From Candidatus Woesearchaeota archaeon (lineage in GTDB: Archaea > Nanobdellota > Nanobdellia > Woesearchaeales > UBA11576): 64,000 nt of DNA. Made by a program: the position numbers and the translations under genes. How positions within the stretch are numbered: the stretch's first letter is position 1; every line of letters starts with the position of its first letter. Below are positions 5,178 to 43,198 of the stretch, piece after piece. The stretch covers positions 64,116 to 128,115 of the forward strand of contig JABJCP010000013.1 in assembly GCA_018668595.1 (NCBI GenBank), read 5' to 3'. The notes below the pieces were generated by a model, which was not told where the DNA came from, searched no databases, and saw only the letters and a list, made by a program, of their open reading frames with translations.

Positions 5178-6701
5178 TTAATTTTCTAAATCAACATTAT
5201 GAATAACTTCTCCACTATTAGGTCCTGTTGTTATTGTTCTAACTGGAACTAATAATTCATTTTGTAATGTTAATAAATAATTCATTGCATTCACCGGAAT
5301 TTGATCCATACTAGTTGCGCCTCTAACTTTGTCTTGATGTGCCCAACCAGGAACACTGTAACCATAAATAGGTTTAACAATTCTTAACGTGTCTGGTCTT
5401 GTAGGAACATAATTTGTTCTTTTTCCATCAACATCATACTCAGTTGCAATTTTCAGCTCTCCATCCCAATCATCAACAACATCAAACTTAGTAACTGCAA
5501 GCTCAGTTGTCAAGTTCCAACGCATGGCTTGGCGAAGCATGACTGCATCCACCCAACCAACACGCCGAGGTCTTCCAGTTGTTGCTCCATACTCTGCAGC
5601 TTTAACTCTAAAATAAGTTGAAAGTGCAAGAGGATCGTCTGCTAATGCGCGCTTTAATAAATCAGAAGTTATTAATTCTTCGCCCTCAAGATTATCTTTA
5701 AAAAGTTCAGGATCGCAAAACTCAGTTGGGAAAATTCCACCACCAACTTTAGAAGAAATAGGTGCTTTTACAATTCCGATAATACGATCGAATTTTACAC
5801 CAAGACCCATGCCACTATAAGCGCCTGCAAGACCTGTATTTGAACAAGTAATATTAGGATATTCGCCAATATCTATATCAAGTCTTGACCCTTGCGCACC
5901 TTCTGCCAAAATTGCTCTTTTCTCGACGTTAATTATATTATCCAAATATTCTTCAGCGTCGACAATCCTATCTTTAAACTGTTCAATAATTTCTGCTTCT
6001 TGAGCTATAATTTTGCTAGGATTTAACTCTTGTAAACCATAATGCTTAAACAAAGGATTAATAAATTTATCACAAGCAGAATTTAATTTTTCCAAAGCAG
6101 GTTTTATATTCATAGACTCATTAGAATCTACAAAATCACCAAACTTAATCCCAAAACGAAGATACTTCATAGAATATGCAATACCAATTGCCTTGTTAGT
6201 TGTTCCAACACTCTTATCAGTCAATAAATTTTCAAGATCTGAATACATAGATAAATTAACAATAGCATTATCAGAAATTTTGAAATTATCCTCTGTTAGA
6301 AAGAATTTCATATCTCCCATTTCTTCTAAAAGACGCTCTCCATTCAGAGTCATTCCAGGACCTGCTAAGTTTTTAACACCTGGAACCGTAACACCAGAAC
6401 AAAGATTGTGCATAACTTTTTTAACAAAAGTCGCGTAATAAACTCCATCATCTTTACTAAACTGCTTTACATCAATTTCATTAATGTTGTTAACTTCTAA
6501 ACCCTCAGGAAGATTAGGATCTGGAGTTCTTGATTCGCCAACTTTAACCCATTGAGTATGACCTGCATTATCTCCACCTTGATAACGAACAACACAACCT
6601 ATATGATTAGAAACGTTTAAAATTTCTTCAATTACTTTAGACTTTGCCTCGTCGCCATAAAATGTTCCATGTAATAAAATATGACCTCTTTTTGTTTTCA
6701 T
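5178..6701 (-). CDS. purA: adenylosuccinate synthetase
   Basis: Has GDEAKSK in place of the GDEGKGK P-loop, QGGDNAGHT, and a GATTGRPRRVGW GTP-binding motif. Length is 507 aa, with insertions. Confidence 0.85.
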   Translation of the reverse strand: MKTKRGHILLHGTFYGDEAKSKVIEEILNVSNHIGCVVRYQGGDNAGHTQWVKVGESRTPDPNLPEGLEVNNINEIDVKQFSKDDGVYYATFVKKVMHNLCSGVTVPGVKNLAGPGMTLNGERLLEEMGDMKFFLTEDNFKISDNAIVNLSMYSDLENLLTDKSVGTTNKAIGIAYSMKYLRFGIKFGDFVDSNESMNIKPALEKLNSACDKFINPLFKHYGLQELNPSKIIAQEAEIIEQFKDRIVDAEEYLDNIINVEKRAILAEGAQGSRLDIDIGEYPNITCSNTGLAGAYSGMGLGVKFDRIIGIVKAPISSKVGGGIFPTEFCDPELFKDNLEGEELITSDLLKRALADDPLALSTYFRVKAAEYGATTGRPRRVGWVDAVMLRQAMRWNLTTELAVTKFDVVDDWDGELKIATEYDVDGKRTNYVPTRPDTLRIVKPIYGYSVPGWAHQDKVRGATSMDQIPVNAMNYLLTLQNELLVPVRTITTGPNSGEVIHNVDLEN

Positions 6702-6724
6702 TTAATCACCTATTATTTTTTCTT

Positions 6725-6790
6725 TGTTATTTGTTCTTTGTCATTGATTCTTTGTCATTGATTCTTTGTCATTAATTCTTTGATATTTTT
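6725..6790. repeat. tandem repeat (14-bp unit ttctttgtcattga, about 3.5 copies) directly upstream of purA
   Basis: Direct reading: gattctttgtcatt repeated. Confidence 0.7.
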
Positions 6791-6832
6791 ATTTTTTTTA
6801 TTATCTATTATGTTTGATTATTTTTTGTTTTT

Positions 6833-8473
6833 TTATTCACACTTAATTATCTTTGAAGTAGGGTTTTCAAACTGCTCTGTCAATATTGTGTTTGTGATTA
6901 TATGTTTGAAAGTTCCTTTTTGATAATTATCTCTAATAACTGCATGATTATCATAAATCTTTTTTAACTTATTACAATCAGTATTACCCCAATAGTTTTG
7001 GTTAGCAATAACATCACGCAAAGTATCTGCAATAATATCAAATGACTGGCCACTTTTTCCAAGTTCTCTAGTATTATTGAAAATATTATTCTCACTCAAT
7101 ATATTTTCATCGACTATAAACTCATGATAATAAGGGTAATCAATTTGTTCCATTAAAATCCCCACTGTATTTTCAGTAATAGTATTATGTGTTAACAAAT
7201 TTGAGTCTGTTGAAATTTTTACTCCAATACCAAAGTTTTTTACAACACAATTAACAATATTAACATTTCTAGCATCAGAACGCATACCAATACCAATAAT
7301 ATCTGCAGTAAGATAGTCATGAGGACTCCCCATTAAAACTGCACCATTACAATCTAATGTAATATCTGATTCTGAAATAATAATTCCTTGACGAAGAACA
7401 TACTCTCCTGGACAAAGAACAGTATCTTGAGTTATGCTCATTTGACCCTCAACAGATTTACAATTCTCAACATCTTTTACAGTAGTAATACTCTGACTAA
7501 CTTTATTATTTTCATCAATTTTCTCAGAATCTAATTGTTCATTTGCTAGCTCATTAACTGCTTCTTGCTGTTTATCTTCAATAGATTGAACTACAGGTTC
7601 AGAATATTCTGCAAAACCTTCTGGACGAATATCTAAATGCGGAAAAACTTTTTCTTTCTTTAAATTATTAAATACCATATTATCAAAATCAAAAATAGTC
7701 TTCATACCATCTTCAAACACATATTCTTTTCTAAGAACTGCTCCATTATAATCATACAACCAATACCTCAATTTATAATCTCCAAAATCACATTCGACAA
7801 TCAAAGCCTCTTTTGACATCTCAATTTGTTGTTTACCTATAACAGTGCCGCATTTCAAATTTTGAGTAATTTCGACTGGAAGTTCAACATTATAATTATA
7901 ATAACTAATTTCTTTTAACTCATCCATCTTAGCACAATAATCTAAATCTTCACACCAAGCATAAGCTTTTTTATTAGCTTTATCTAAATAAACTACATCA
8001 AAAACATCTTCGGGAAAATAATTTTGTTCATAAGGAATCTCAATTCTAACCGCATTTCCATAAACATAAAAATGACTCATCTTAGATTTAGTATCAACAT
8101 CATTCCCTAATGTTTCTCCAGTGTAATAAAAATAATAAGACTTGACTTTACTGGTTGCTTCTTGAAGCGATTGAATCTTTTTATCCAAATAAACTTTTTT
8201 ATCTAGCTTCGACGATGAATCTACAGAGTTAGAATTTTCTTTTGAATTATCTGAAATCACTCCATCAACGAGTTTTGTTTTTTCTTTACTATCTAAATCA
8301 TCTGATTGAGGTAGCGGAGATTCGAGATCTACAAGATCCATTGCACCAATTAAAGGATCTTGATTAACTGCAGGATTAATCTTAGAAGTTGTACAGCCCA
8401 CAACTAATAACATACACATTGTTAACAACAAAATAAAAACTGATAATAAAATGTTTTTCAAAACTTTTTTCAT
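6833..8473 (-). CDS. secreted lipoprotein with a right-handed beta-helix (pectate-lyase/NosD-like) repeat domain
   Basis: Signal peptide with a lipobox (LLVVGC). The C-terminal region has periodic hydrophobic-N/G repeats typical of parallel beta-helices (NCVVKNFGIGVKIS...HNTITENTVGI). It sits inside the pur operon. Confidence 0.45.
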   Translation of the reverse strand: MKKVLKNILLSVFILLLTMCMLLVVGCTTSKINPAVNQDPLIGAMDLVDLESPLPQSDDLDSKEKTKLVDGVISDNSKENSNSVDSSSKLDKKVYLDKKIQSLQEATSKVKSYYFYYTGETLGNDVDTKSKMSHFYVYGNAVRIEIPYEQNYFPEDVFDVVYLDKANKKAYAWCEDLDYCAKMDELKEISYYNYNVELPVEITQNLKCGTVIGKQQIEMSKEALIVECDFGDYKLRYWLYDYNGAVLRKEYVFEDGMKTIFDFDNMVFNNLKKEKVFPHLDIRPEGFAEYSEPVVQSIEDKQQEAVNELANEQLDSEKIDENNKVSQSITTVKDVENCKSVEGQMSITQDTVLCPGEYVLRQGIIISESDITLDCNGAVLMGSPHDYLTADIIGIGMRSDARNVNIVNCVVKNFGIGVKISTDSNLLTHNTITENTVGILMEQIDYPYYHEFIVDENILSENNIFNNTRELGKSGQSFDIIADTLRDVIANQNYWGNTDCNKLKKIYDNHAVIRDNYQKGTFKHIITNTILTEQFENPTSKIIKCE

Positions 8474-8592
8474 TTCCCATCCTCCATTTAATCTTCTATT
8501 GAGTTTAATTTACCTGATTCAACTGTTTATTTGATTTAATTTTTCATTCAGTTTAATCAATTATTAATTTTAATTTTTAACTGTTTAACTTT

Positions 8593-9780
8593 TTAATAAT
8601 CTCTAAATTTAAAATCATATTTCTCAGATACTTTAATCAAATTATCAACAATACGATCATTAATTGATTGATTCTCTTTTGTATTTGCAAGAGCTCTCAA
8701 TTCAACAAAATGTTTTCCAGTCATAAGTTCATATGCAGATGCGTAAAGAACTGCTGCATCAATAACAAGCTCATCAGGAAATTTAACAGGTTTTCCTGCC
8801 CTGCCTATTTTTTCAACATAATCTCGAATAAATTGTTTATCAAAAGCACTAGGAATATTATCTACTCTACCCCCCCTATATTCTTCATAATCGTCTGCTT
8901 TCCAAATTCTACTTGAATCTGCAGTAATCATTTCATCAACAACACGCACAAGCTTATTTTCAATTGTGTAAAACTTTTTTGAATCGTCTGTAGCACTAAA
9001 ATTATTAATTGATGAATCCATATTTTTAAAATCATATCTGTCAACACCTAATTCGAATTTTGTATCAACTAAAAGCAAACCACGCTCTGCTAAAAAATCC
9101 TCAGACTTTCTAAATAAACCAAAACAAATATTTACAAGGTTATCCAGGATAGATTCTCCACCAACTAATTCTGCTGCAACATCATAAGGTATAGGAAGAT
9201 CATGACCCGATTCTGCTTTTGTCGTCGGAGTAAATAATAAACTAGTTAATCGTCCCCCCGTTTGTATTAATTCATCTTCGAACATATCAGGAGTTATGTT
9301 AATTCCATATCCTTTTGTAAAACAATTGAGTTCAGATGACCATTCTTGAGCACCATCAACTTTTGATTTAAAATCTTTCCAACCACTACCTGTTAAATGA
9401 CGTCGGATTACAAACTCGACAGGAAAAACCTTGCAATTAACTGCATAAGTAAAATTAGGATCAATACTTGAATCAATAGTTTGAGATGCGACAACATCTT
9501 TGCAAAGATCCATAAAAAAATTATTAAGAGCAGTTGTTACAAGACCTTTATTTGGAATTAAACTGTGATGAACACAATCATGAGTAGAAATTCTATCAGT
9601 TCTCGCCATTAATCTGTACAAATCAAAAATATTACTATCTGCAACCTTTCCAGAATGAGGAACAATATCTGATCTGAATGCATATTGAGGAATATCAAAT
9701 TCTCTAAATAAAAAATTGTTATTCAAATCATTTCTTATAATTTTTGTCAATTCAGATAATTTAGTTATTGTTTCTACCAT
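8593..9780 (-). CDS. purC: SAICAR synthetase (long form)
   Basis: Has the LLLVDTKFELG motif, the GK...D ATP-site region and a C-terminal extension. Confidence 0.85.
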   Translation of the reverse strand: MVETITKLSELTKIIRNDLNNNFLFREFDIPQYAFRSDIVPHSGKVADSNIFDLYRLMARTDRISTHDCVHHSLIPNKGLVTTALNNFFMDLCKDVVASQTIDSSIDPNFTYAVNCKVFPVEFVIRRHLTGSGWKDFKSKVDGAQEWSSELNCFTKGYGINITPDMFEDELIQTGGRLTSLLFTPTTKAESGHDLPIPYDVAAELVGGESILDNLVNICFGLFRKSEDFLAERGLLLVDTKFELGVDRYDFKNMDSSINNFSATDDSKKFYTIENKLVRVVDEMITADSSRIWKADDYEEYRGGRVDNIPSAFDKQFIRDYVEKIGRAGKPVKFPDELVIDAAVLYASAYELMTGKHFVELRALANTKENQSINDRIVDNLIKVSEKYDFKFRDY

Positions 9781-9806
9781 TTAATATCACCTTTATTTTA
9801 TAATAA

Positions 9807-10730
9807 TTACCTGCTAAAAAAAGCATCATTTATTTTAGGATTATCTCCATACTTAATTTTTGCATCGCGTTTATATTCGACCAAGTTCTTCCTTAAACCC
9901 TTTCTGCTAGCAGATAAAATCTGTGCTGCAAAAATAGCTGCGTTTTCAGGACGAGTAAAATACAATGAATTATTACACTTGCTGATTGAATTCAATATTC
10001 CATCCAAAGTGATATCTGCATATTTTGATGTTGGATTTGCACAAGATAAACAAACACCATCAAAAAAATCAAATTTAGTTGCGTCAATAAAATTATCAAA
10101 AATATTAATACAAAGTTCAGCTTTATCTTCTTCTGGTTCTTTTATTTTATATGGAACCTCTAAAGAATCTAACAAACTCTTTGCCTTATCAAAATAATCA
10201 CAAGAATAATCTTTAGGAATTAAAACAACATAATCAAAATAATTATTCACAATCTTTTCAGAAATTAAAAAAGCATCTGGTAAAGAATTCTTTTTATCTG
10301 AATGTGGGGCCACAACACCAACAGGAATTCCTGGCGGAAGATTTGAATTTGAAATAAATGCATCTAAACCGCCTCCAATAACATTAGCGCTTAATGGAAC
10401 TGCAATCATAGGTGTGTGAGGAAGATAAGCTGCAACAACTGCAGGAAGTTGAAAACTCATACCACCAACCCAAACACAACAAAAACCCGCATTATTGTCA
10501 GAATAATATACATTATCAATAAAAGCAGAAAGCTGATCTGCAATATCAAGAGTTCTTTGGGGCGTTCTATGAATTGAAGTTAACAAAGGTTTGCCTAAAG
10601 AAATATCTTTTTGTCTAAAATAATCTTGAAAATTCTGACCTCCTAGTTTAGCATATTTTCTAAATAAAACCTCGTCGTCACTTGTTGATCCTCGACCAAC
10701 AAATAAATATTTTCCAAAATTTTTTGTAAT
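9807..10730 (-). CDS. purE: AIR carboxylase / N5-CAIR mutase; CDS extended upstream of the ORF-track TTG to an in-frame ATT
   Basis: Has the SIHRTP motif (compare SAHRTP) and a GGMSFQLPAVVAA region. The in-frame upstream extension encodes FVGRGSTSDDEV (compare GSxSD). A GAGGTGA Shine-Dalgarno motif lies 5 nt before the ATT. Confidence 0.75.
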   Translation of the reverse strand: MTKNFGKYLFVGRGSTSDDEVLFRKYAKLGGQNFQDYFRQKDISLGKPLLTSIHRTPQRTLDIADQLSAFIDNVYYSDNNAGFCCVWVGGMSFQLPAVVAAYLPHTPMIAVPLSANVIGGGLDAFISNSNLPPGIPVGVVAPHSDKKNSLPDAFLISEKIVNNYFDYVVLIPKDYSCDYFDKAKSLLDSLEVPYKIKEPEEDKAELCINIFDNFIDATKFDFFDGVCLSCANPTSKYADITLDGILNSISKCNNSLYFTRPENAAIFAAQILSASRKGLRKNLVEYKRDAKIKYGDNPKINDAFFSR

Positions 10731-10735
10731 TCAAA

Positions 10736-10742
10736 TCACCTC
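10736..10742 (-). promoter_or_regulatory. Shine-Dalgarno GAGGTGA for purE
   Basis: The reverse complement of tcacctc lies 5 nt upstream of the in-frame ATT. It sits between the purB stop and purE. Confidence 0.5.
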
Positions 10743-10745
10743 AAT

Positions 10746-12215
10746 TTAAACATTAATTTCTGAATCAGACTTTCCAATAAGTCCGGCATATTTTTTTAAA
10801 ACAGGATCGACAACGCGAGTTATAAAATCCTCTGTCTGCTCAGGAGCACAACCTGCAAACTTCCAAGGACTTGAAATCATTTCATTCAATTCATCTAACT
10901 CTAAAGGAATAGATTCATCATCAGCAATTCTGAATAATAAATCATTATCTCCTCCTGAATTTTTAACAACCTTGCCTGCAGCAACAGCATGCGTTTTAAC
11001 AAGTTCATGAATATTTTGTCTGCTTTCTCCTCTATCAACACACTCCATAATAATATCTTCTGAAGCCATAAAAGGAAGTTCTGCATTTAGATAACGTGCA
11101 ATTGAATTTTTATAAACAACCATATCTGAAGTGATGTTTTCATAAAGTTTCAAAACAGAGTCACAACAAAGAAATGATTGAGGAATATCAATTCTACGAA
11201 TAGCAGAATCATCAAGTGTTCTTTCAAACCACTGGTTTGCTGCAGTTTGATAAAAATTAAGTGGCTTTGTGAGTAAGAATCTTGCAAGAGAAGTCATACG
11301 CTCACTACGCATAGGATTTCGTTTGTAAGGCATTGCACTACTTCCGGTTTGATTTTGAGCAAAAGGTTCTTCTTGAATTTTAAGATTAGACATGAGTCTC
11401 ATATCCACTGCAAACTTATGTGCAGAAATAGCAATACCTGTTAATGTTTCTGCAAGTTTTGTATCTAATTTTCTAGGATATGTTTGTCCAGTAACTGGAA
11501 AAGACGAATTAAAACCTAACTTTTTTGAAACAATATCGTCGAGCTGTTGAACTTTATCATAATTATTTTTGAATAATTTTAGATAGGATGCCTGAGTTCC
11601 AGTAGTTCCTTTAACACCTCTTGCGTCGAGTACATTATTTTCAAAAAAATCAAGATACTCCAAGTCTGTTAATAAATCCTGAATATATAATGTGTGTCTT
11701 TTTCCAACTGTTGTTGGTTGCGCAGGTTGGTAATGAGTATAACCTAAAGTTACTAAATCTTTATGCTCGAATGCAAAATTTCTTAAATTAGAAATTACAG
11801 AAACAAGACCTTCTCGAATATAATTTACTCCTTTTTTTATTTGAAGAAGTTCAGAATTACAAGTAACAAAACAACTAGTAGCACCAAGATGAATAATTGG
11901 TTCTGCATTAGGACATTGTTGTCCAAAAGCATAAACATGCGCCATAACATCATGCCTTATTTCATTTTCTTTTTGCTTTGCAACATCAAAATTAATATTA
12001 TCTACAAATTGACTAAGATCATAAACTTGACTTTCAGTTACAATAAGATTATCTTCACTATCTTTAAGACCCATTTCATTTTGAGCCTGTGCTAAAGCAA
12101 CCCAACATTCTCTCCATAAAGAAAACTTTGTCTGATTAGAGAAAAGTTCTTGCATTCTTTTGCTAGTATATCTTCCGACCAATGGTTCGACATAAATATC
12201 GTTTATGTTTTGCAT
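10746..12215 (-). CDS. purB: adenylosuccinate lyase
   Basis: Has the fumarate-lyase signature GSSAMPYKRNP and matches over its full length. Confidence 0.9.
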   Translation of the reverse strand: MQNINDIYVEPLVGRYTSKRMQELFSNQTKFSLWRECWVALAQAQNEMGLKDSEDNLIVTESQVYDLSQFVDNINFDVAKQKENEIRHDVMAHVYAFGQQCPNAEPIIHLGATSCFVTCNSELLQIKKGVNYIREGLVSVISNLRNFAFEHKDLVTLGYTHYQPAQPTTVGKRHTLYIQDLLTDLEYLDFFENNVLDARGVKGTTGTQASYLKLFKNNYDKVQQLDDIVSKKLGFNSSFPVTGQTYPRKLDTKLAETLTGIAISAHKFAVDMRLMSNLKIQEEPFAQNQTGSSAMPYKRNPMRSERMTSLARFLLTKPLNFYQTAANQWFERTLDDSAIRRIDIPQSFLCCDSVLKLYENITSDMVVYKNSIARYLNAELPFMASEDIIMECVDRGESRQNIHELVKTHAVAAGKVVKNSGGDNDLLFRIADDESIPLELDELNEMISSPWKFAGCAPEQTEDFITRVVDPVLKKYAGLIGKSDSEINV

Positions 12216-12239
12216 TTTGGATACCTCAGTTTATTTATC

Positions 12240-13598
12240 TTAATGTTTGAATAATCTTTGACCTGTAAATAACATCGGAACATGCACTTTATTGCAAGCC
12301 TCAATTACTTGATAATCATTAATACTTCCGCCAGGTTGAACAACTCCTGCTATTCCCTGTGCAAGTCCTACCTCTACACCGTCGGGAAATGGAAAAAAAC
12401 CATCTGAAATCATAATACTACAATCAAGACCTGCACAATTTTTTGAAACTTCTGAATTAATTAATTCTGCTTGACTTGTTGTGATATCTGCGTAGGGTAT
12501 TTTATATTTTAACCAAGCAGCACGATCTTTTGCTTTATCATATGCTTTTGCAACTGCAATCTTTGCAACACCAACACGATCCTGCTCGCCCGTACCAATA
12601 GCCACAGTAGTTTCGTCTTTTACAAAAATAATTGAATTTGACGTAACTCCATACTCTACTGCTAAACCAAACTCAACATCAGGTTTTAGATCTGTAGAAA
12701 AATTAGATGCTGATTTGTATTTTTGTTTTCTATACGTATGATGTGCAGGAACTAAATTTTCAAAAGAATTATTTAACTTCTGATTAAGCTGTAGAACCAT
12801 ACCCCCATCAGATAATGATTTAAATTCTAAATAATTAGAATTAACAAAATCCTGAAGACGATTTATGTTCTTTATTTTAATAATTCTCAAATTTTTCTTT
12901 TTTTCAAACAAGTCCAAAACGCCATCTTCAAACTCAGGAGCTGCAATAACCTCTGCATAATTATCACAAATAGACTCTGCAGTAATTTTATCAATAGATT
13001 GATTAAAAACAACTGCGCCACCAAAAGCAGCAACACGATCTGCAAGGTTTGCAGTCTGATATGCTTTGACGAGAGAATCTTTTCTTGACACACCACAAGG
13101 ATTATTATGCTTAACAATAACACAACTTGGTCTGGCTCCTAAATATTTTAAAATGTTTAAAGCAGAATCAACATCAGTCAAATTAATTTTGCCAGGATGT
13201 TTGCCTGATTGAACTAATTCAGGAAATGAAACCAAATAATTATCAGGAGAAATAATCTCTATATCACCAATAAGAAGATTTCCATTAATTAATCTATACA
13301 GTGCTGCGGGCTGATCTGGATTTTCACCATAACGCAAACCTTTTTTTTCATATAATCCTGAATCTTTATTTAAGATGCCCCACTCGGTTTTTGCATATAA
13401 CAAAGATTGACCATCAATAATATTTCCAGTGGACTCGTCTATTGCATCAAAAAAAGTTTGACGAATAAATCTAGGAAAAGGATCGTCATTTATTGTCTTG
13501 TATATTGTTTGGAGTTTAGATTTTGAACTATTTTTCAAATTTTGTTTATCATTTTTCAATTTATTCACCCAGTTTATTAAGTATTGTTGGATATGCAA
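12240..13598 (-). CDS. purH: AICAR transformylase domain of PurH (C-terminal half of the bifunctional enzyme, as a separate ORF)
   Basis: Has GLRYGENPDQ, CVIVKHNNPCGV, and AFGGAVVFN, a C-terminal FTGQRLFKH. The TTG start overlaps the upstream ORF by 38 nt. Confidence 0.8.
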   Translation of the reverse strand: MHIQQYLINWVNKLKNDKQNLKNSSKSKLQTIYKTINDDPFPRFIRQTFFDAIDESTGNIIDGQSLLYAKTEWGILNKDSGLYEKKGLRYGENPDQPAALYRLINGNLLIGDIEIISPDNYLVSFPELVQSGKHPGKINLTDVDSALNILKYLGARPSCVIVKHNNPCGVSRKDSLVKAYQTANLADRVAAFGGAVVFNQSIDKITAESICDNYAEVIAAPEFEDGVLDLFEKKKNLRIIKIKNINRLQDFVNSNYLEFKSLSDGGMVLQLNQKLNNSFENLVPAHHTYRKQKYKSASNFSTDLKPDVEFGLAVEYGVTSNSIIFVKDETTVAIGTGEQDRVGVAKIAVAKAYDKAKDRAAWLKYKIPYADITTSQAELINSEVSKNCAGLDCSIMISDGFFPFPDGVEVGLAQGIAGVVQPGGSINDYQVIEACNKVHVPMLFTGQRLFKH

Positions 13599-14271
13599 AA
13601 CTAATATCTTTCACTGTTCTCGTAATAAAATAATTTGCAATCAAAGAATCATATTGCGCAGTATGAATAAATGCTTGCTGTGCACAATATAATCTAAATT
13701 TAAGATTTGTATGTCCTTTAGTTTGTTTTAATTTATCTATTAAAAAAGGATAATCTGCAGGATTAACAACAACTCCAACTCTTAAAAAGTTTTTTGCAGC
13801 AGCTCTAACCATGCTCGGACCACCAATATCAATATTACCTCGCGCATCTTCAAAATGAACAGGATCTTTACCAGATTTATTTGAAATAACCTGAGAAAAA
13901 GGATAAAGATTGCACACAACAAGATCAATAGGTTCTGCATTTTCTCGTCTAAGATCATCTTGGTGTGCTTGCGAATAAGTTTCAGTTAAGTAACCTAAAA
14001 AAAGTTTATGGTGCAAGGTTTTAACAAGACCCCCTTCTGTTGGAGGCATATCAGTATATGATTTTACATCGCTCAAATTTTTAAATGAATTTTCTCCTAA
14101 AATCTCAGTTATCTTTTTGTAAGTTCCGCCAGTAGAATAAATATTCACACCAGGAATAATTTTAATTAAATCATGGATGAGCTGGTCTAAACCTGATTTA
14201 TCAGACACACTAATCACTACATTTTTTATTTTTACCAAATCATCAATTTGTTCTACACGACGAATAGACAT
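13561..14271 (-). CDS. purH: IMP cyclohydrolase (MGS-like) domain of PurH (N-terminal half, as a separate ORF)
   Basis: Has ISVSDKSGL, STGGT, GGLVKTLHHKLF, and DLVVCNLYPF, IDIGGPSMVRAAAKN. It ends 21 codons after the IANYF interdomain-linker motif. Confidence 0.8.
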   Translation of the reverse strand: MSIRRVEQIDDLVKIKNVVISVSDKSGLDQLIHDLIKIIPGVNIYSTGGTYKKITEILGENSFKNLSDVKSYTDMPPTEGGLVKTLHHKLFLGYLTETYSQAHQDDLRRENAEPIDLVVCNLYPFSQVISNKSGKDPVHFEDARGNIDIGGPSMVRAAAKNFLRVGVVVNPADYPFLIDKLKQTKGHTNLKFRLYCAQQAFIHTAQYDSLIANYFITRTVKDISFAYPTILNKLGE

Positions 14272-14274
14272 TGT

Positions 14275-15294
14275 TTATACGCCCTCTTCATTAAAATTTT
14301 TTTTCATATAAACCGGATGGATGTTTAGTCCATGAAAATTAAAATTAATATCAAAACCTCGATTTCTTAGTTTTGAAATTCCTCTATACAAGTAAGTAAA
14401 TTCTAAACTGTTTGGCGTGTTTTTTGGGATGTAATAACCGCACAAGTTAGGATTTATTATGTTACCCTCTTTTTTTATTTTGATCTCATCATAAAATTCA
14501 TCAAATGAAAGAATAAACTCATACTTCTTTGATTTATCTTCTCCTTCAAATACATTTAACATATAATCGATTTTGTTTCTTTGCATTTTTTCTAAATTAA
14601 TTTCAACTTCAGAATCATTATTAAAAATCACTTTACCTTCTGCGAACCATTGAAGACAGGTTGAAATTTGATCATATTCTAAGTTCTTGCCTCTATCACT
14701 TAATGAATCTGAGTCGTCATCAAGAGTTATTTTCATTGGAGTTTGACAAATCACAGGACCGTGATCTACTTTATCGTTGACAAAATGAAATGTTACACAA
14801 GTCCAGTCATTTCTTCTCACTGCATCTTTGTGATAACCTAATGCCCAATCATAACCTCCAATCCCTTGAAATTCTAAGGGTGCAGGGTGAGTATTTAGAA
14901 CACGATTTGGAAATTTAGACAGGAAATGGCCTGTGATGATTCTTTCATATCCTAATAAAACAACATAATCAGGATTGTATTCTAAAAGTCCTTTCTGATT
15001 ATTGTAACCTTTAAGCAGTCTCTCTTCCTGAAGAATTCTTTCGAGTAGTTTACGTTCTTTTCTTTTTGTGCTTTCTAAATTTGAACTTGTAATTTTTTGA
15101 ACTGGAACTGAAAGTGTTGGAATGTTATGATTTTTTGCACGCCCTAATGCAAAACATTCTGGCTCGTCGCTAAAAACACAAACCACTTCAAAATCAAAAT
15201 CAGGTTTGAAACTGTTATCGATAACACTTTGCAAACAAGTTCCACTACCTGAAGCTCCAACTGCAAGTTTTAATTTATTGTTAAGTTTATTCAT
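14275..15294 (-). CDS. purN: GAR transformylase with a roughly 140-aa C-terminal extension
   Basis: Has LAVGASGSGTCLQSVID (compare SGxGSNLQA) and YVVLLGYERII...NTHPAP (compare NIHPSLLP). Confidence 0.65.
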   Translation of the reverse strand: MNKLNNKLKLAVGASGSGTCLQSVIDNSFKPDFDFEVVCVFSDEPECFALGRAKNHNIPTLSVPVQKITSSNLESTKRKERKLLERILQEERLLKGYNNQKGLLEYNPDYVVLLGYERIITGHFLSKFPNRVLNTHPAPLEFQGIGGYDWALGYHKDAVRRNDWTCVTFHFVNDKVDHGPVICQTPMKITLDDDSDSLSDRGKNLEYDQISTCLQWFAEGKVIFNNDSEVEINLEKMQRNKIDYMLNVFEGEDKSKKYEFILSFDEFYDEIKIKKEGNIINPNLCGYYIPKNTPNSLEFTYLYRGISKLRNRGFDINFNFHGLNIHPVYMKKNFNEEGV

Positions 15295-16597
15295 TTTCGA
15301 AGTTATTTTTACCTATATCTGTACGATATGCACTATTATCAAACTTTATGATTTTAATAGCACTGTATGCTCTATCAACTGCATCCAAATGATCTGTGCC
15401 AAGAGCAGTAATTCCTAACACTCTCCCCCCTGCAGTTCTGACGATTGATTCATCTTTTTTAGTGCCTGCATGAAACGCATAAAATCCATTTAATTCAGAA
15501 ATCTCAGTTAACTGTTTTAAACCCAAAATCTTACAACCAGACCTGTACTTTCCAGGATATAACTTTGAAACTGCAACAACACAACAAGCATGAGCCTGTT
15601 TATTACTCCACTCAAATCCATCTAATTTTTTTTCGATAATTGCTTGGCCAAGTTCATACCAATCATTATTATTTAGTGGAACAATAACTTGCGTCTCTGG
15701 ATCTCCTAAACGTACATTATATTCGAGAACCTTAGGTCCTTCATCTGTTAACATAAGTGCAATATATAAAAATCCTTTATAATCAAAATTCTCTGCTCGT
15801 AAACCTTCCAATGTTGGTTCAATAATAGTATCTTCAATTATTTGATCAAGTTCTTTTGTTATAAGTTTTGTTGGAGCATAAGCACCCATACCCCCTGTGT
15901 TGGGACCTTTATCATTATTGAATCTCCTTTTATGATCTCTAGAATAAGATAATTTTTTGTAAGATTTACCGTCGGTAACTAAAGTTAAACTAACTTCAGG
16001 TCCAACCAAACACTCTTCTAAAATATAATCATTACCTGCAGAACCAAAATTATTTTTTAAATTTTTAATTGCTTTAATTGCTTCAGATTTAGAATTACAA
16101 ACATAAACTCCTTTACCCGCACAAAGACCATCTGCTTTAACAACAATAGGCGCTCCAACAATATTGATATATTCTATGCCAAGATCTACAGAACTGTTTT
16201 TGAACGGAACAAAATTAGGAATAGGAATATTATATTTTTTCATAAACTCTCTTGCGAAAATTTTACTCCCTTCTAAAACTGCTGAACGTTTATTTGGCGC
16301 TATTATGTTAAGATTTGCAATTTCAAAAGCATCAGCAATTCCTTTAACTAAAGAATCTTCAGGACCAACCCAAGTTTGATCAATGTTATTATCTTTTGCA
16401 AAATTAACTAATGCAGAAATATCATTTGGAGAAATGTTTATGTTTAATTTAGTACCTCCATTACCCTGTGCGCAAAAAACTTTATCAACATGTTTACTTT
16501 GAGAAAGTTTCCAACACAAAACATGTTCTCGTCCTCCACTTCCAACTACTAGAATATTTTTCCCTTTTTTTTCTTCTTGTTTAATTCCCTTCTTCAT
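15287..16597 (-). CDS. purD: GAR synthetase
   Basis: Has ILVVGSGGREHVLCWKLSQS and an ATP-grasp core. The start is placed at the internal ATG, which is preceded by GGTGAT. The ORF-track start at 16657 is probably an over-extension. Confidence 0.85.
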   Translation of the reverse strand: MKKGIKQEEKKGKNILVVGSGGREHVLCWKLSQSKHVDKVFCAQGNGGTKLNINISPNDISALVNFAKDNNIDQTWVGPEDSLVKGIADAFEIANLNIIAPNKRSAVLEGSKIFAREFMKKYNIPIPNFVPFKNSSVDLGIEYINIVGAPIVVKADGLCAGKGVYVCNSKSEAIKAIKNLKNNFGSAGNDYILEECLVGPEVSLTLVTDGKSYKKLSYSRDHKRRFNNDKGPNTGGMGAYAPTKLITKELDQIIEDTIIEPTLEGLRAENFDYKGFLYIALMLTDEGPKVLEYNVRLGDPETQVIVPLNNNDWYELGQAIIEKKLDGFEWSNKQAHACCVVAVSKLYPGKYRSGCKILGLKQLTEISELNGFYAFHAGTKKDESIVRTAGGRVLGITALGTDHLDAVDRAYSAIKIIKFDNSAYRTDIGKNNFENE

Positions 16598-16697
16598 CAA
16601 ATCACCTTTTTTTAACTTAACTATGCTATTAACTAAAATAATTAACCGCAATATCAAAAATAATTAAATGCATTAACTAAAATAATTAAATGCAATA

Positions 16698-17552
16698 TCA
16701 AAAATAGTTAACTGCATTATCAAAAATAGTTAAACAATCTGTAAACTTAGGCATATCAATATCCATTCTAGATCTATACTCTCTATCAAGTGTAAAAAAT
16801 TCATTTTGAACAGAATAAATTGCGCGTTCTGGATGAGGCATTAAACCAAAAAATCTTCCAGAAGGATCACAAATACCTGCAATGTCGTCAAGAGAACCAT
16901 TAGGATTTGCATCACCTATTGCTTTTGAACCATCCTTGTTTATATATTTCAAAACAATTTGATTTGAACTTCTTAATTGCTCCATAATATTTTCGGGAGC
17001 ATAAAATCTCCCTTCACCATGTGCTATAGGCAGGTGAAGTCTACTAATGTTTTTTGTCCAAACACAACCAGTTCCTAATTCTTCAGACTTAACATATTCT
17101 TGATCTTCAGATTCGATATATTCTTGATTATTAGAAAGATAAACCCAAAGATCTCTGTATCTTGCAGATGAATTAAACGTGAGTGCAGTTTTTGAAGTTC
17201 CATAATTTTTATCTCCTATAGGAAAAAAACCAAGATGCGACATAATTTGAAATCCATTACAAATACCAATTGCAAGAGTATCTCGCTCTATGAATTTTTC
17301 TATTTGTTCGCTAAGATTATCTCTAACAATATTTGCATAAGCAAGACCAGAACCCGTATCATCACCCATACTAAAACCACCAGGAAAAACAAGAATGTTA
17401 CAATCATCAATTAAAAATTTATTTTCGATAATATCAGTAATATGAACAATTTGAGTTTTTGCACCGACGAGATCGAAAGCATGAGCTGTTTCGCGCTCGC
17501 AGTTAATACCATAACCGCTCATGATTAAAGTTTTTGGTTTGAATTCGCTCAA
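16698..17552 (-). CDS. purQ: FGAM synthase glutaminase subunit (class I glutamine amidotransferase)
   Basis: Has the GICNGFQ nucleophile elbow and the HPE catalytic pair (MPHPERA). Confidence 0.85.
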   Translation of the reverse strand: MSEFKPKTLIMSGYGINCERETAHAFDLVGAKTQIVHITDIIENKFLIDDCNILVFPGGFSMGDDTGSGLAYANIVRDNLSEQIEKFIERDTLAIGICNGFQIMSHLGFFPIGDKNYGTSKTALTFNSSARYRDLWVYLSNNQEYIESEDQEYVKSEELGTGCVWTKNISRLHLPIAHGEGRFYAPENIMEQLRSSNQIVLKYINKDGSKAIGDANPNGSLDDIAGICDPSGRFFGLMPHPERAIYSVQNEFFTLDREYRSRMDIDMPKFTDCLTIFDNAVNYF

Positions 17553-17553
17553 A

Positions 17554-20500
17554 TTAATAACCCCTCAATGTTTTTTTATAAGCCTCAGAGAGATCATTTA
17601 TTGATGAATCAATAATTTTCTTATCACTTTTTGAAATAGTGAATGAATTATTCTCTGAAACAAAACCAATACATGCATAAGGAATTTTGTTTAACTTATT
17701 TTCGAACAAATATTTTTTTTCAGGATCGACAGTCACAACAAATCTGCTTTGAGACTCAGAAAATAAAACATGATCTATGCGCTTAACAAGATATGCTGCA
17801 GGAGAACATAATAAACTATCCAATTCTATTTGCATTCCCAATTGCCCTCCAATAGCAATTTTTGCTAACGTAACTCCAATACCCCCTACACCAACAGACG
17901 CGCAACTAGCGACCAGGCCAGATTCAATAATATTCTCCACTGTTCTATAAACCTCCAGTGCAAAAGTAGCATTAACTGATGGAACAATTCCTCCAACAAA
18001 TTCGCGATTTCTATTAGGATCAGATTCTCCAATCATTGCGTGATACTCTGATCCCCCTAATTCTTTTTTTGTACTGTTAATTATATAAACCAAATCACCA
18101 GGAACTTTAGCCTCCAATGTTTGACATTTGCGTACATCAGGAATAATACTTTGACCAGAAATAAGAAGAGCAGGGAGTGCATCAATTTTAACAGTATTTC
18201 CATTTTCATCGAATCCCTTGAATGTATTAAACATACTATCTTTTCCAGAAACAAAAGGCGTTTGATAAACAGTTGCATAATCAAAACATGCTTTTGCTGC
18301 TCTCTTTAATTGACCAAGACGCTCAGGCTCGTCGCTGGAACACCAACAAAAATTATCCAACAAAACCATTCTATCAAGTTTAGCTCCTGCTGCAATCATA
18401 TTTCTCACCGCAGTATCAATTGCACAACTAGCCATATGATATGTATCAATAAGACTATATCTTGGATAAAGAGATTGCGTAGACACAACTCCTTTCATAG
18501 AACTCAAAACTGGTCGAGTGATGGTCGCATCAGAATCAACTTTTCCTTTACCAACCATTGGCTTAATTACAGAACCTCCTTGAACCTCATGATCAAACTG
18601 TTCATAAATAAATTCTTTACTACAAATGTTTAATCTTGAAAGCATGGAATTAAGAGTATTTGTAAGATCATTTTGTTCTTTAATAAACGGTTCTTCATGT
18701 TTGTAAAGATCAGGTGTCCAAGTTGTTTTTAAATTTCTCTGAGGAAGACCATCATGAAAAAAATCAAGATCTAAGTCGAGAACTAGTTCTCCATTGAATG
18801 ATGCGACTGCTTTTTTTGAATCATTAAATTCTCCAATAACTGTTGCCTCGACATCATGTTTTTTTGAAATTTTCATAAATTCGACTATTTTGTTTTTTGG
18901 AACTGAAAAAGTAAAACGCTCTTGAGATTCAGAAATAAGAATTTGATCAGGACGCATACCAGGATATTTTAAAGGTACTTTGTTTAAATCTATATTTGCT
19001 CCACCAGACTCCTTTGCCATTTCATAAACAGAACAAGAAAGACCTCCTGCACCATTATCAGTAATTGACGTGTATAGATTTTTATCTCTTAGTTCTTTAA
19101 CAATTGCATCGCTTGATTTTTTCTGAGTAATAGGATCTCCAATTTGCACAGCACTTGCAGGTGAACCTGAATCCATAGATTCACTAGAAAAAGTTGCACC
19201 ATGAATACCATCAAGACCGACTCTACCGCCAAGCATAACCACAAGATCTCCTGATTTTGCTTTTTTCTCCCAAGAATTCCGATTTGCAGATTTGAGTGGA
19301 AGAATTCCATCAACACCGACAAAAACTAAAGGCTTGCCACTAAATGAATCATGAAAAAAAGCACTACCTTGAGGCGTTGGAATACCTGATTTATTTCCTC
19401 CATCTTTAACACCTTCAATAACACCATCCATAATACTTCTCGGACTAAGAATTTTTTGTTCAAGAAGTCCACTTTCTTGATTTTTATTTTTGAAAAGTTG
19501 ACGTTTACTTTTTGGATCTGCAAAACAAAAAAAGAATCTATGATTATAAGGCATAGCTCCAAGACCTGCACCTACCGCATCACGATCAACTCCAACAATC
19601 CCAGTAATTGCACCACCATAAGGATCTAAAGCTGACGGAGAATTATGAGTTTCAACTTTAACAGTAATTGCGTACTCCTCATTGAATTTAATAATCCCAG
19701 AATTATCTTTGAAAACAGAAAGAAGATAATCCTCTTTTTGTCTATTTTTCCAAGATGTTCTTATTTTATTTGTGGCTCCGCGAATAAACGTTTTGTAAAT
19801 ATTATTAACTGTTGCTGATAATTCGTCATCTAAATTTGCTGCAAAAATTGTGTGTTTGCAATGTTCAGACCAAGTTTGTGCTAAACATTCAAGTTCAACA
19901 TCAGTCGGATCTCTTTTTAGTTTTTCAAAATGTTGTTGAATTATTTTAATAGGAATTCCTTCGTCGACATCTAATGCTAAAGGTCCACGCCTTATTTTTG
20001 TGATTGGATCTAAAATTCCTTGTTTTGCTATAAGTTTAAGTTCAGATTCAGAAATGTCCCTTATTGGAACAACCATTGCAGTTGGCTTATTTTCTAAAAT
20101 AACTTGAGGAACATATGGCAAAAATCCATTATTCAAAAAATCATTTCCTGATTTTACAACAATATTTTCTATAAGAGGATTTGCTAAAATATTGCCAATA
20201 GAATTTAGAATATTTTGATTTAATTCTTGTCCATTAATTAATAAATATCTCGTTGAGTGAACAGATTCGTTCGTGTCGAATAGTTCATTTAATTTTGCTT
20301 CAATTCCTTTTCTTGCAGTTGTTGCAACATTATCTGTAACACCTGGTTTGAAACCAATCTCCAAAGCAAAATCACAATTTTCTTTGAATGAATCATCTAT
20401 TTGATAAATTTGAGAAACCGGATTAGTTAAAGACTCTGCAATTAATTTTAGAGTTTCTTTTGGAACATTTTTATTTATAGTGTATGAATCAACAACATCA

Positions 20501-20622
20501 ACAGAATTAATGTTTGCTTGTGGAATTGCACCTTCCTCCATTAAAGAAATTAATTTATTTTTTATAACTTCTCCTCGAGAATCAATCCCTAATTTATATT
20601 TTACTTCAATTCGATTTGCCAT
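17554..20622 (-). CDS. purL: FGAM synthase large subunit with two N-terminal PurS-like domains (PurS-PurS-PurL fusion)
   Basis: Residues 1-80 and about 85-165 each resemble PurS (VKYKLGIDSRGEV..., LEIGFKPGVTDNVATTARKGIE...). The PurL/AIRS-like core follows, 1022 aa in total. Confidence 0.85.
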   Translation of the reverse strand: MANRIEVKYKLGIDSRGEVIKNKLISLMEEGAIPQANINSVDVVDSYTINKNVPKETLKLIAESLTNPVSQIYQIDDSFKENCDFALEIGFKPGVTDNVATTARKGIEAKLNELFDTNESVHSTRYLLINGQELNQNILNSIGNILANPLIENIVVKSGNDFLNNGFLPYVPQVILENKPTAMVVPIRDISESELKLIAKQGILDPITKIRRGPLALDVDEGIPIKIIQQHFEKLKRDPTDVELECLAQTWSEHCKHTIFAANLDDELSATVNNIYKTFIRGATNKIRTSWKNRQKEDYLLSVFKDNSGIIKFNEEYAITVKVETHNSPSALDPYGGAITGIVGVDRDAVGAGLGAMPYNHRFFFCFADPKSKRQLFKNKNQESGLLEQKILSPRSIMDGVIEGVKDGGNKSGIPTPQGSAFFHDSFSGKPLVFVGVDGILPLKSANRNSWEKKAKSGDLVVMLGGRVGLDGIHGATFSSESMDSGSPASAVQIGDPITQKKSSDAIVKELRDKNLYTSITDNGAGGLSCSVYEMAKESGGANIDLNKVPLKYPGMRPDQILISESQERFTFSVPKNKIVEFMKISKKHDVEATVIGEFNDSKKAVASFNGELVLDLDLDFFHDGLPQRNLKTTWTPDLYKHEEPFIKEQNDLTNTLNSMLSRLNICSKEFIYEQFDHEVQGGSVIKPMVGKGKVDSDATITRPVLSSMKGVVSTQSLYPRYSLIDTYHMASCAIDTAVRNMIAAGAKLDRMVLLDNFCWCSSDEPERLGQLKRAAKACFDYATVYQTPFVSGKDSMFNTFKGFDENGNTVKIDALPALLISGQSIIPDVRKCQTLEAKVPGDLVYIINSTKKELGGSEYHAMIGESDPNRNREFVGGIVPSVNATFALEVYRTVENIIESGLVASCASVGVGGIGVTLAKIAIGGQLGMQIELDSLLCSPAAYLVKRIDHVLFSESQSRFVVTVDPEKKYLFENKLNKIPYACIGFVSENNSFTISKSDKKIIDSSINDLSEAYKKTLRGY

Positions 20623-20649
20623 ACGCCCATACCTTGATTGATACCTTAC

Positions 20650-21855
20650 TTAATATCCTTCAAACTCATAGGATTTATTATCTTTTACCAGAATAGTTTT
20701 ATTAACATTACTTGCCAATCCAACATAACCAATTTTCTTTGCTGCTATGTTATATTTTTTTGCAATTTCAAATGCTGCATCTCCATTATCTCTTAACACA
20801 ATTGCAAAACCCATGCCCATGTTAAGTTTTGTAAACGCAGTTTTGACATCGTAATTTGCTTCTTCTTTTACAAGATTATGAATAGGTTTTGGTTCGAACG
20901 GATCTTCAATTATGAATGAGACATCATTTCCGAATCTATTGAAGTTTCTTAAACCATTACCTGTAATATTTACTCCAAAAACAAAATTTGAATTTGCTGC
21001 AATCTCTGCAATCATTCTTGAATAAATTAAAGTTGGTTCTAGCAAAGCTTGACCAATAGTTTGATTTGTATTAGGGACTAAATCACTCAAAGAATATTTT
21101 CCTCTGTACTGAGACTTCCATTCGCTTCTCGGATCAACATTTGGCGTAAGTAATGTGTGTCTTGCCGCAGTGTAACCATTAGAATGCAAACCAGAACTTT
21201 CAAAACCCACAATTATATCTCCCTTTTTAGGAATCCAAAGAGGCATGTCATCTTTTTTTATGAAACCATTCATGCCACAACCAATATCAAAACCATAATG
21301 TGGAACAGGTCCTGTAATCATTTCATCAAGACTTGCAGTTTCGAGTTTACCAAAATTAATAACTTCTGCATCATCAAGAATATCTGAAACATCACATTTT
21401 TTTAGAGCACCTACTATTCCCTTCATTATCTCACCCATCTTGTGCTCTTCAATTTTTGACTGGCAGGCAAAATATAAATTAATTGTATCTGGACAAACTT
21501 TCCCCATAATCGCATAATCATTAGCATTCATTGCAACCAAATCAAAACCAATAGTTTGATAATTGTTCAACCACTGAGCGAGAAAGAGTTTTGTGCCTGC
21601 ACCATCTTCAGTAGTTACTTTATAAGAATCAGGATGAAATCTGCTCTCTGTTAAAACGCAAAAAGAACCTTTAAAACTTTTATGTCTAGAAGTAAGATAA
21701 TTTGGAATTTGTTTTTGACCATCTGAAATAGCAGTATGTTCACGAGATTCATAATCTTCTGCTCTCGGGTTTAAACTACCAACATCACCTTTTGAAGACA
21801 GAGTTACCTCCTTTTCCCCACTACCTCTTTTCTCTTTTGCCCCCACTAAATTCAC
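20650..21855 (-). CDS. purM: AIR synthetase
   Basis: Has the DGAGTKL motif and the AIRS N- and C-domains. Confidence 0.85.
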   Translation of the reverse strand: MNLVGAKEKRGSGEKEVTLSSKGDVGSLNPRAEDYESREHTAISDGQKQIPNYLTSRHKSFKGSFCVLTESRFHPDSYKVTTEDGAGTKLFLAQWLNNYQTIGFDLVAMNANDYAIMGKVCPDTINLYFACQSKIEEHKMGEIMKGIVGALKKCDVSDILDDAEVINFGKLETASLDEMITGPVPHYGFDIGCGMNGFIKKDDMPLWIPKKGDIIVGFESSGLHSNGYTAARHTLLTPNVDPRSEWKSQYRGKYSLSDLVPNTNQTIGQALLEPTLIYSRMIAEIAANSNFVFGVNITGNGLRNFNRFGNDVSFIIEDPFEPKPIHNLVKEEANYDVKTAFTKLNMGMGFAIVLRDNGDAAFEIAKKYNIAAKKIGYVGLASNVNKTILVKDNKSYEFEGY

Positions 21856-30571: not shown

Positions 30572-30757
30572 ATAAAATATTTTATTATTTTTTTTCTTAA
30601 TTTATTTGTTTTTATTCAGTCTATTTATTTACTATTTTTTAGTTGTGAATTATAGAAACCTTTATATAGAACTATATGCTAACTAACTATCAATATATCG
30701 AGGTAACCAAAAATAGAGGTGATACCTTAAATTCAAACCTAACGGGGGTATCCAACA

Positions 30758-35767: not shown

Positions 35768-35773
35768 GATCTA

Positions 35774-35779
35774 CACCTC
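35774..35779 (-). promoter_or_regulatory. Shine-Dalgarno GAGGTG for pyk
   Basis: The reverse complement of cacctc. It is followed by TAG, ATC, then ATT. Confidence 0.5.
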
Positions 35780-35807
35780 TTTTTGATTATTGATTAATGA
35801 TCTAATG

Positions 35808-35891
35808 ATAACTTAACGACCATATGACGATAACTTAATGACCATATGACGATAACTTAATGATCCCATGTTGATAACTTAATGACAATCT
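35808..35891. repeat. tandem repeat, 22-bp unit gataacttaatgaccatatgac, about 3.8 copies, upstream of pyk
   Basis: Direct reading. Copies 3 and 4 are degenerate. Confidence 0.75.
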
Positions 35892-43147: not shown

Positions 43148-43154
43148 TTTTGGT

Positions 43155-43159
43155 TCACC
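43155..43159 (-). promoter_or_regulatory. Shine-Dalgarno GGTGA for thrC
   Basis: The reverse complement of tcacc, with a 7-nt spacer to the in-frame ATA. Coordinates are ±1. Confidence 0.45.
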
Positions 43160-43198
43160 TTTTTTTGATTGAATTAATTAATTGATTATTTTTTTGTA

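Follow-up and report, generated by a model that had tools for sequence, protein, structure and literature searches.

The purE gene on the minus strand of the 64-kb window, by which we mean the whole 64,000-nucleotide stretch of Candidatus Woesearchaeota archaeon DNA analysed here, is probably translated from an AUU codon (10730-10728) into a 307-residue protein. The probability of this interpretation is estimated to be about 0.8. An earlier sequence-only reading treated purE alone; two further genes of the window, encoding pyruvate kinase and threonine synthase, share its anatomy.

Start region of purE

The purB gene lies immediately upstream of purE and ends with GAA ATT AAT GTT TAA. The bases after this TAA are ATT GAG GTG ATT TGA ATT ACA AAA AAT TTT GGA AAA TAT TTA TTT GTT GGT CGA GGA TCA ACA AGT GAC, which read in the purE frame as stop-I-E-V-I-stop-I-T-K-N-F-G-K-Y-L-F-V-G-R-G-S-T-S-D. 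The table-11 listing of open reading frames (ORFs) puts the purE start at TTG 10586-10584, giving a product of 259 amino acids. As the sequence-only reading held, the frame remains open upstream of this codon back to a TGA at 10733-10731, and the translation between the two, which opens with I-T-K-N-F-G-K-Y-L-F-V-G-R-G-S-T-S-D-D-E-V-L-F-R-K-Y-A-K-L-G-G-Q-N-F, contains the conserved PurE N-terminus. None of the 48 codons between TGA 10733-10731 and TTG 10586 is an in-frame ATG, GTG or TTG; a run of this length free of canonical starts is expected by chance with P ~0.17 (in-frame frequency in the window, 3.6%) and is not rare on its own. Within it, ATT 10730-10728 is the sole codon one base away from ATG upstream of the conserved K7. 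It had been singled out as the sole initiation-like codon, 5 nt after GAGGTGA (10742-10736), and this holds, with the motif being one base longer (GAGGTGAT). The purB stop is also in frame, five codons (ATT GAG GTG ATT TGA) before the ATT, as had been stated. The predicted N-terminal peptide of the ATT-start protein is (M)TKNFGKYLFVGR. The features of the locus, all on the minus strand, are as follows.

9807 to 10730: purE coding sequence, from ATT to the TAA at 9809-9807, 307 codons plus stop (open frame; Pfam AIRC; identical to NCBI MBT5022372.1; PurE fold in the AlphaFold model)
10728 to 10730: ATT, proposed start codon, the first codon past the in-frame TGA and 4 nt after GAGGTGAT
10731 to 10733: in-frame TGA that closes the purE frame upstream of the ATT, within the 4-nt spacer TTGA
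10735 to 10742: Shine-Dalgarno site GAGGTGAT
10746 to 10748: purB stop TAA, 15 nt before the ATT in the same frame (purB carries Lyase_1 and ADSL_C)
10587 to 10727: the 47 codons past the ATT that a TTG start would lose, containing strand β1, the GSTSD loop and helix α1 (family alignment, PDB 2ywx and model)
10677 to 10691: codons 14-18, G-S-T-S-D, the PurE GSxSD loop
10584 to 10586: TTG picked by the ORF listing and by Prodigal-type callers, judged not to be the real start

The motif GAGGTGAT is an 8-nt match to the anti-Shine-Dalgarno sequence. For the scoring of Shine-Dalgarno (SD) sites, positions -19 to -3 were paired with GAUCACCUCCU, the 3′ end of 16S rRNA, at 55 gene starts and at 1,465 internal in-frame ATT, ATC or ATA codons (ATH). 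The predicted duplex at the purE ATT (-13.2 kcal/mol) ranks first among the 55 gene starts, for which the median is -6.3 kcal/mol, and none of the 1,465 internal ATH codons has an SD as strong. The SD ahead of the purE ATT is therefore not due to chance. Most genes of the window carry an SD of the GGTG or GAGG type 3-10 nt ahead of ATG, as in purC (AGGTGAT-ATTAA-ATG), and the comparison of these gene starts confirmed that purE has the same spacing as the ATG genes.

The TGA upstream of the ATT is an ordinary terminator. It ends 16 of the 57 long ORFs of the window, and the 55 curated genes contain 129 TGG tryptophan codons and no in-frame TGA; thus, TGA is a real stop and the code is standard. 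Recoding of TGA (code 4 or 25), raised because of the low G+C content of the window (30%), was rejected as unlikely on this stop-codon usage. A frameshift or slippage on the A6T4 run that follows the ATT was also considered and rejected: the off-frame TTG 10735-10733 lies only 1 nt past GAGGTGA, overlapping the last T of GAGGTGAT, which is too close, and the assemblies agree. Scans of the window for tRNAs and Rfam families gave no match.

The PurE protein and its relatives

The encoded protein matches Pfam AIRC (PF00731) with 55.1 bits against a gathering cut-off of 30, and scores 53 bits with TIGR01162, the NCBIfam purE equivalog, for which the cut-off is 149.6. The motifs GSxSD, S-x-H-R-T-P and GG..LPG are all present. 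Known PurE (PF00731; N5-carboxyaminoimidazole ribonucleotide mutase or aminoimidazole ribonucleotide carboxylase) shares these motifs with it, and likewise the fold, the GG...LP loop, the C-terminal helix and the purC neighbour. Unlike known PurE, the protein has ~300 residues with a ~115-residue insertion, and by sequence criteria it belongs to a divergent subfamily characterized by this insertion. The only protein recovered by a word-based homology search was this one itself. With exhaustive HMMER searching, 114 relatives were obtained at E-values up to 0.001, among them a PurE-like family of ~290-335 residues with identity up to 35%. This "long PurE" family has ~100 cluster representatives, and its members with an organism name are labelled Woesearchaeota. 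It is little described; its insertion follows the core sheet and precedes the C-terminal helix, and one portion of the insertion weakly resembles a second PurE half, PDB 3rg8 and 5c5d aligning to profile positions 162-283.

Across alignments of 30-32 long-PurE members, S15 never varies, and G14 and D18 hardly do. Most of these proteins open with a methionine 2-6 residues before the K7 position, and five start exactly at the column of the window ATT; the alignment of homologues, which the sequence-only reading had proposed as a check, thus favours the ATT start. The family profile aligns with PDB 2ywx, deposited as phosphoribosylaminoimidazole carboxylase catalytic subunit (PurE), from chain residue 2 through I-C-I-I-M-G-S-E-S-D, and the alignment picks up again at the C-terminal helix, past the insertion. 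In the AlphaFold model (predicted local distance difference test, 91.3; predicted template modelling score, 0.92), residues 7-13 form strand β1 and residues 16-22 the first helix. The top Foldseek matches of this model are all PurE structures, with target-normalised template modelling scores of 0.6-0.7. According to the profile, the Pfam and PDB alignments and the model, β1 and the GSxSD loop fall in the stretch that a start at TTG 10586 would skip, in agreement with the earlier claim that such a start deletes the N-terminal loop, and the N-terminal extension is structurally required.

The 259-residue form is what Prodigal-type callers report, and by exact-sequence look-up it is present in JGI, ENA and Logan assemblies. 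The same kind of look-up found the 307-residue product in three NCBI genome assemblies of Candidatus Woesearchaeota archaeon (MBT5022372.1, MBT6518859.1 and MBT7368998.1), where it equals the ATT-start translation with M replacing I and is named only "hypothetical protein"; the ATT-start product has already been captured by automated annotation. That the shorter form is the true product, or that the ATT and TGA are an assembly error, is highly improbable. The shorter form lacks β1 together with the conserved G14, S15 and D18, and TTG 10586 pairs with only -2.4 kcal/mol, i.e., it has no SD site. Because of the loss of β1 and the GSxSD loop and the missing SD site, the TTG start is considered not real. 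In addition, the start region (241 nt) is 100% identical in seven loci from at least five samples and different assembly programs. These seven identical independent assemblies exclude the sequencing or assembly error at the purE start against which the sequence-only reading had advised a check.

The homologous start codon could be read in the DNA of five long-PurE relatives (L008 and L096-L099): it is ATG in three and TTG in two, each with an SD-like sequence, and the AUU start is therefore specific to the lineage of the window. AUU is not conserved in these orthologues (0 of 5), and this is the first of several points that weigh against initiation at AUU. HMMER found no relative above ~35% identity among 1.8 billion representative proteins, so that selection on the ATT itself is unmeasurable, and all purE copies are identical, which makes population data uninformative. 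The starts given in reviews of archaeal initiation are AUG, GUG and UUG only (PMC7531240), discrimination against non-canonical codons has been reported for the archaeal initiation factor aIF1 (PMC6237735), and in E. coli AUU, AUC and AUA yield 1-2% of the AUG output (10.1101/063800). Moreover, AUU initiation of purE is supported by computation only.

The gene lies in a nearly complete purine operon at 5178-21855 on the minus strand (purM-L-Q-D-N-H-B-E-C, with purA nearby), and purE is needed because the operon is otherwise complete; no purK is present in the window. purC directly follows purE in four metagenome loci as well (L096-L099). Among the genome contigs examined for purB synteny (80 loci kept), archaeal L008 was useful and archaeal L009 has no purE beside purB, the rest being bacterial, and a related-locus search of metagenome contigs with a 10-sequence query gave one locus, truncated at its 5′ end. 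Outside two archaeal genome assemblies, purB has its nearest homologues in Clostridia (~50% identity), which hints at bacterial origin. Elsewhere in the operon, purH is split into two ORFs (13561-14271 and 12240-13598) with a 38-nt overlap, and between purC and purA there is a predicted lipoprotein of 546 amino acids with no Pfam-domain hit on record.

Pyruvate kinase, threonine synthase and rival explanations

All stop-to-stop frames of the window were scanned for long stretches ahead of the first canonical start, and two more real genes were found.

34325 to 35779, minus strand: pyruvate kinase, with GAGGTG at 35779-35774, TAG at 35773-35771, ATC at 35770-35768, ATT at 35767-35765 and the coding sequence to 34325 (start region, TIGR01064 and NCBI record)
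42023 to 43160, minus strand: threonine synthase, with AGGTGA at 43160-43155, a 7-nt spacer, ATA at 43147-43145 and the coding sequence to 42023 (frame and NF006050)

The pyruvate kinase start region reads caaaaaGAGGTG-TAG-ATC-ATT-ACT-ATT-GCT-AAA-GCT-AAA-ACT-AAA-ATT-GTT-TGT-ACT-ATT-GGA-CCT. The first canonical codon, TTG 35674, lies 32 codons into the conserved N-terminus, with K-T-K-I-V-C-T-I-G-P upstream of it, and TIGR01064 positions 2-476 correspond to residues 8-468. The NCBI protein has 481 amino acids from ATC. The predicted N-terminus is (M)TIAK from ATT or (M)ITIAK from ATC, of which we prefer ATT 35767 as the likely start by its SD spacing; the GAGGTG-N6-ATT arrangement is the same in purE and pyruvate kinase. 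The SD of pyruvate kinase scores -9.7 kcal/mol and that of threonine synthase -8.5 kcal/mol, a value reached by only 2.5% of internal ATH codons.

The nearest pyruvate kinase relatives have 53-61% identity, several are labelled Woesearchaeota, and three of the proteins are truncated at an internal methionine. At the DNA level, the arrangement aaaGAGGTG-N6/7-AT[TC]-(ATH/ACT/CCT)-AAG/AAA/CGT occurs in 7/7 Woesearchaeota lineages (the window and six relatives), with a spacer that differs in sequence in every lineage and is N6 in five and N7 in two. Two relatives (L089 and L090) have no canonical start, the GTG within GAGGTG lying in another frame there, and in the window that GTG meets TAG at once; therefore, AUU or AUC (AUY) is the only option in those three lineages. 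The remaining four lineages have the GTG in frame, and gene callers start from it; this GTG lacks an SD of its own and would add three residues to the canonical M-x-K-T-K-I. The JGI/NCBI start of L093-L095 and L091 is this GTG (N-termini VNxI or MNxI), and these annotated N-termini are probably three residues too long. Since the relatives range from 32 to 50% G+C, pressure toward A+T is by itself no explanation for the AUY start. Pyruvate kinase is preceded by a 388-nt intergenic region, and a promoter-like AAACCTTTTTAAA motif stands upstream of the gene in its relatives. Directly upstream of the pyruvate kinase SD, at 35807-35886, GATAACTTAATGACCATATGAC is repeated in tandem (22-nt unit, 3.6 copies, 87% matches), which may be an array of regulator-binding sites.

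The threonine synthase start reads AGGTGA-accaaaa-ATA-ACC-CAC..., and the region encodes a CxxC...CxxC N-terminal domain. Its first canonical start, ATG 42904, lies within the motif EGATPML, and ATA 43147 is 81 codons farther upstream. Counted from this ATA, residues 2-372 match NF006050 positions 4-386, and the predicted N-terminal peptide is (M)THATSIQCVECK. The NCBI protein of 383 amino acids begins at ATT 43174, a codon without an SD, and by SD spacing ATA 43147 is preferred over it as the probable start. These two codons are the only ones from which the 81 codons ahead of ATG 42904, with the CxxC...CxxC domain, can be reached. The gene begins ~53 nt after the preceding stop.

With these two genes, starts at AUU, AUC or AUA (AUH) amount to 3 of about 55-57 genes of the window. 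No further AUH-start gene besides pyruvate kinase was found in 21 kb of the closest relative (L093), in the loci of ten other relatives, or in the 10 kb past the window (L100). Non-canonical starts were also considered for the ORFs at 15287-16657, 56269-57336 and 47959-49095 (minus strand) and rejected as ordinary miscalls, in which the TTG or GTG of the longest ORF has no SD and an ATG a few codons downstream (16597, 57327 and 49086, respectively) has a strong one. The threonine second codon common to all three window cases (AT[TA]-ACN) is treated as a coincidence, as the relatives of pyruvate kinase do not retain it.

The three genes together bear on the other explanations that could be offered for purE. 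One is that ribosomes terminating at purB are caught by the adjacent SD, which begins 3 nt past the purB stop, and restart 15 nt on regardless of the start codon, so that the identity of AUU is minor and purE is wholly dependent on purB. In Haloferax volcanii, spacers of 13-14 nt indeed retain 40-60% of reinitiation (PMC10666635). However, such reinitiation fails for pyruvate kinase, with its long intergenic region and the promoter-like motif of its relatives, as well as for threonine synthase, given its distance from the preceding stop, and a reinitiating ribosome still requires a codon readable by the initiator tRNA. As a full account it is unlikely; these objections leave purB coupling as a possible contributor to purE output and no replacement for AUU initiation.

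It is very unlikely that purE is instead a decaying gene, whose start was killed by an ATG-to-ATT mutation and whose frame is intact merely because the event is young. The 307-codon frame is intact with all family-invariant residues kept, the strongest SD of the window is still preserved, and the remainder of the pur operon is intact. The ATG or TTG at the start position of the relatives would fit decay, the 30% G+C content makes pressure from G to T or A plausible, and the close relatives needed for a selection test are absent. Nevertheless, decay would require three enzymes dying in the same way within 64 kb, and the pyruvate kinase AUY is kept across lineages of 53-61% protein identity and 32-50% G+C.

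Another explanation has translation begin with GTG 10739-10737, which is in frame and part of the SD-like motif, the TGA being read through by recoding or suppression. It draws on the GTG of GAGGTG being in frame in both purE (GTG ATT TGA ATT) and pyruvate kinase (GTG TAG ATC ATT), and on callers starting at this GTG in pyruvate kinase relatives where no stop comes after it. We regard it as extremely improbable, since GTG 10739-10737 has no SD upstream, TGA is an ordinary stop in this genome, and pyruvate kinase would need a different stop, TAG, to be read through. Moreover, threonine synthase, L089 and L090 have the GTG in a different frame from the gene, and the spacer varies in sequence and length (N6 or N7) as non-coding DNA does.

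Two other observations concern the surroundings. An orphan GAGGTGAT at 30716-30723 on the plus strand, preceded by a promoter-like AAACCTTTATATA at 30657-30669, lies ~36 nt upstream of an ORF of 65 amino acids (ATG 30759), and a start codon is missing from the working range of the motif, which could act as a decoy or standby site for ribosomes. Just past the window end (L100, 1-10000), ~17 small co-directional genes without Pfam hits and an M43 peptidase, all with canonical starts, make up what looks like a virus-like or mobile region.

Probable initiation at AUU and its implications

If purE is initiated at AUU, the small ribosomal subunit would be placed by the 8-nt SD GAGGUGAU 4 nt upstream of the codon, the same arrangement as in archaeal mRNAs led by a strong SD. 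The initiator Met-tRNA would read AUU despite the third-position mismatch and presumably insert methionine, and the very strong SD pairing would offset the weakness of the codon. Ribosomes finishing purB 15 nt upstream may add to initiation. The output is probably below that from an AUG.

In E. coli infC, the AUU start is an autoregulatory sensor read by initiation factor 3. Frequent AUN starts are found in mitochondria and in Mycoplasma/Spiroplasma (NCBI table 4), and Deinococcus deserti reportedly has non-canonical starts. Lineages with AUN starts likewise have several genes per genome with AUU, AUC or AUA; the present case differs in belonging to another domain of life and in using the standard code with TGA as a stop. 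The E. coli genes infC and pcnB resemble purE in that AUU, with an SD ahead, gives the only access to the conserved N-terminus. The two E. coli genes are bacterial, whereas the host of purE is an archaeon with eukaryote-type factors (aIF1, aIF1A and aIF2), and the product of purE is an enzyme of purine synthesis that has no evident connection with initiation fidelity. The relatives of purE, moreover, are without AUU.

The infC and pcnB genes are the only confirmed AUU genes of E. coli (10.1101/063800). Across 36 groups of related genomes, AUG-to-AUU switches number 1/61,358, and start-codon switches are associated with alterations of the SD region (PMC5622118), in keeping with a strong SD acting as compensation. 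In Haloferax ribosome profiling, near-cognate codons made up ~30% of the putative sites of alternative initiation, and these were set aside (PMC7261190). The ribosome-binding site of purE, GAGGUGAU-UUGA-AUU, is nearly the same as that of the Pyrococcus abyssi aEF1A model mRNA, GGAGGUGAU-UUAA-AUG, with the same 4-nt spacer; the difference is the start codon, AUU in purE and AUG in aEF1A (PMC6237735). A full-text literature search combining Woesearchaeota with "start codon" returned nothing relevant.

Pyruvate kinase and threonine synthase are built like purE, and we infer that the organism may tolerate or exploit AUU, AUC and AUA starts more widely. A broader proposal, which we hold tentatively and at somewhat below even odds, is that these codons are working starts in this Woesearchaeota clade, used by ~4-5% of the genes of this genome, with the AUY of pyruvate kinase held by selection. 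This lineage-wide pattern is a more interesting lead than purE alone. Prodigal-type callers shorten the three enzymes to 259, 431 and 293 amino acids, compared with 307, 480-481 and 374 for purE, pyruvate kinase and threonine synthase, respectively, and such calls drop catalytic N-termini and distort the metabolic reconstruction of DPANN genomes. If true, the pattern would be the first documented systematic use of starts that are not AUG, GUG or UUG in archaea. It would mean either that start-codon proofreading is relaxed or altered, through aIF1 or the initiator tRNA, or that weak starts are deliberately combined with very strong SD sites to set the output of central-metabolism enzymes. Since 64 kb contain three AUH starts led by an SD, of which one is conserved across a clade, the choice between relaxed start fidelity and fixed expression attenuators becomes testable in DPANN archaea.

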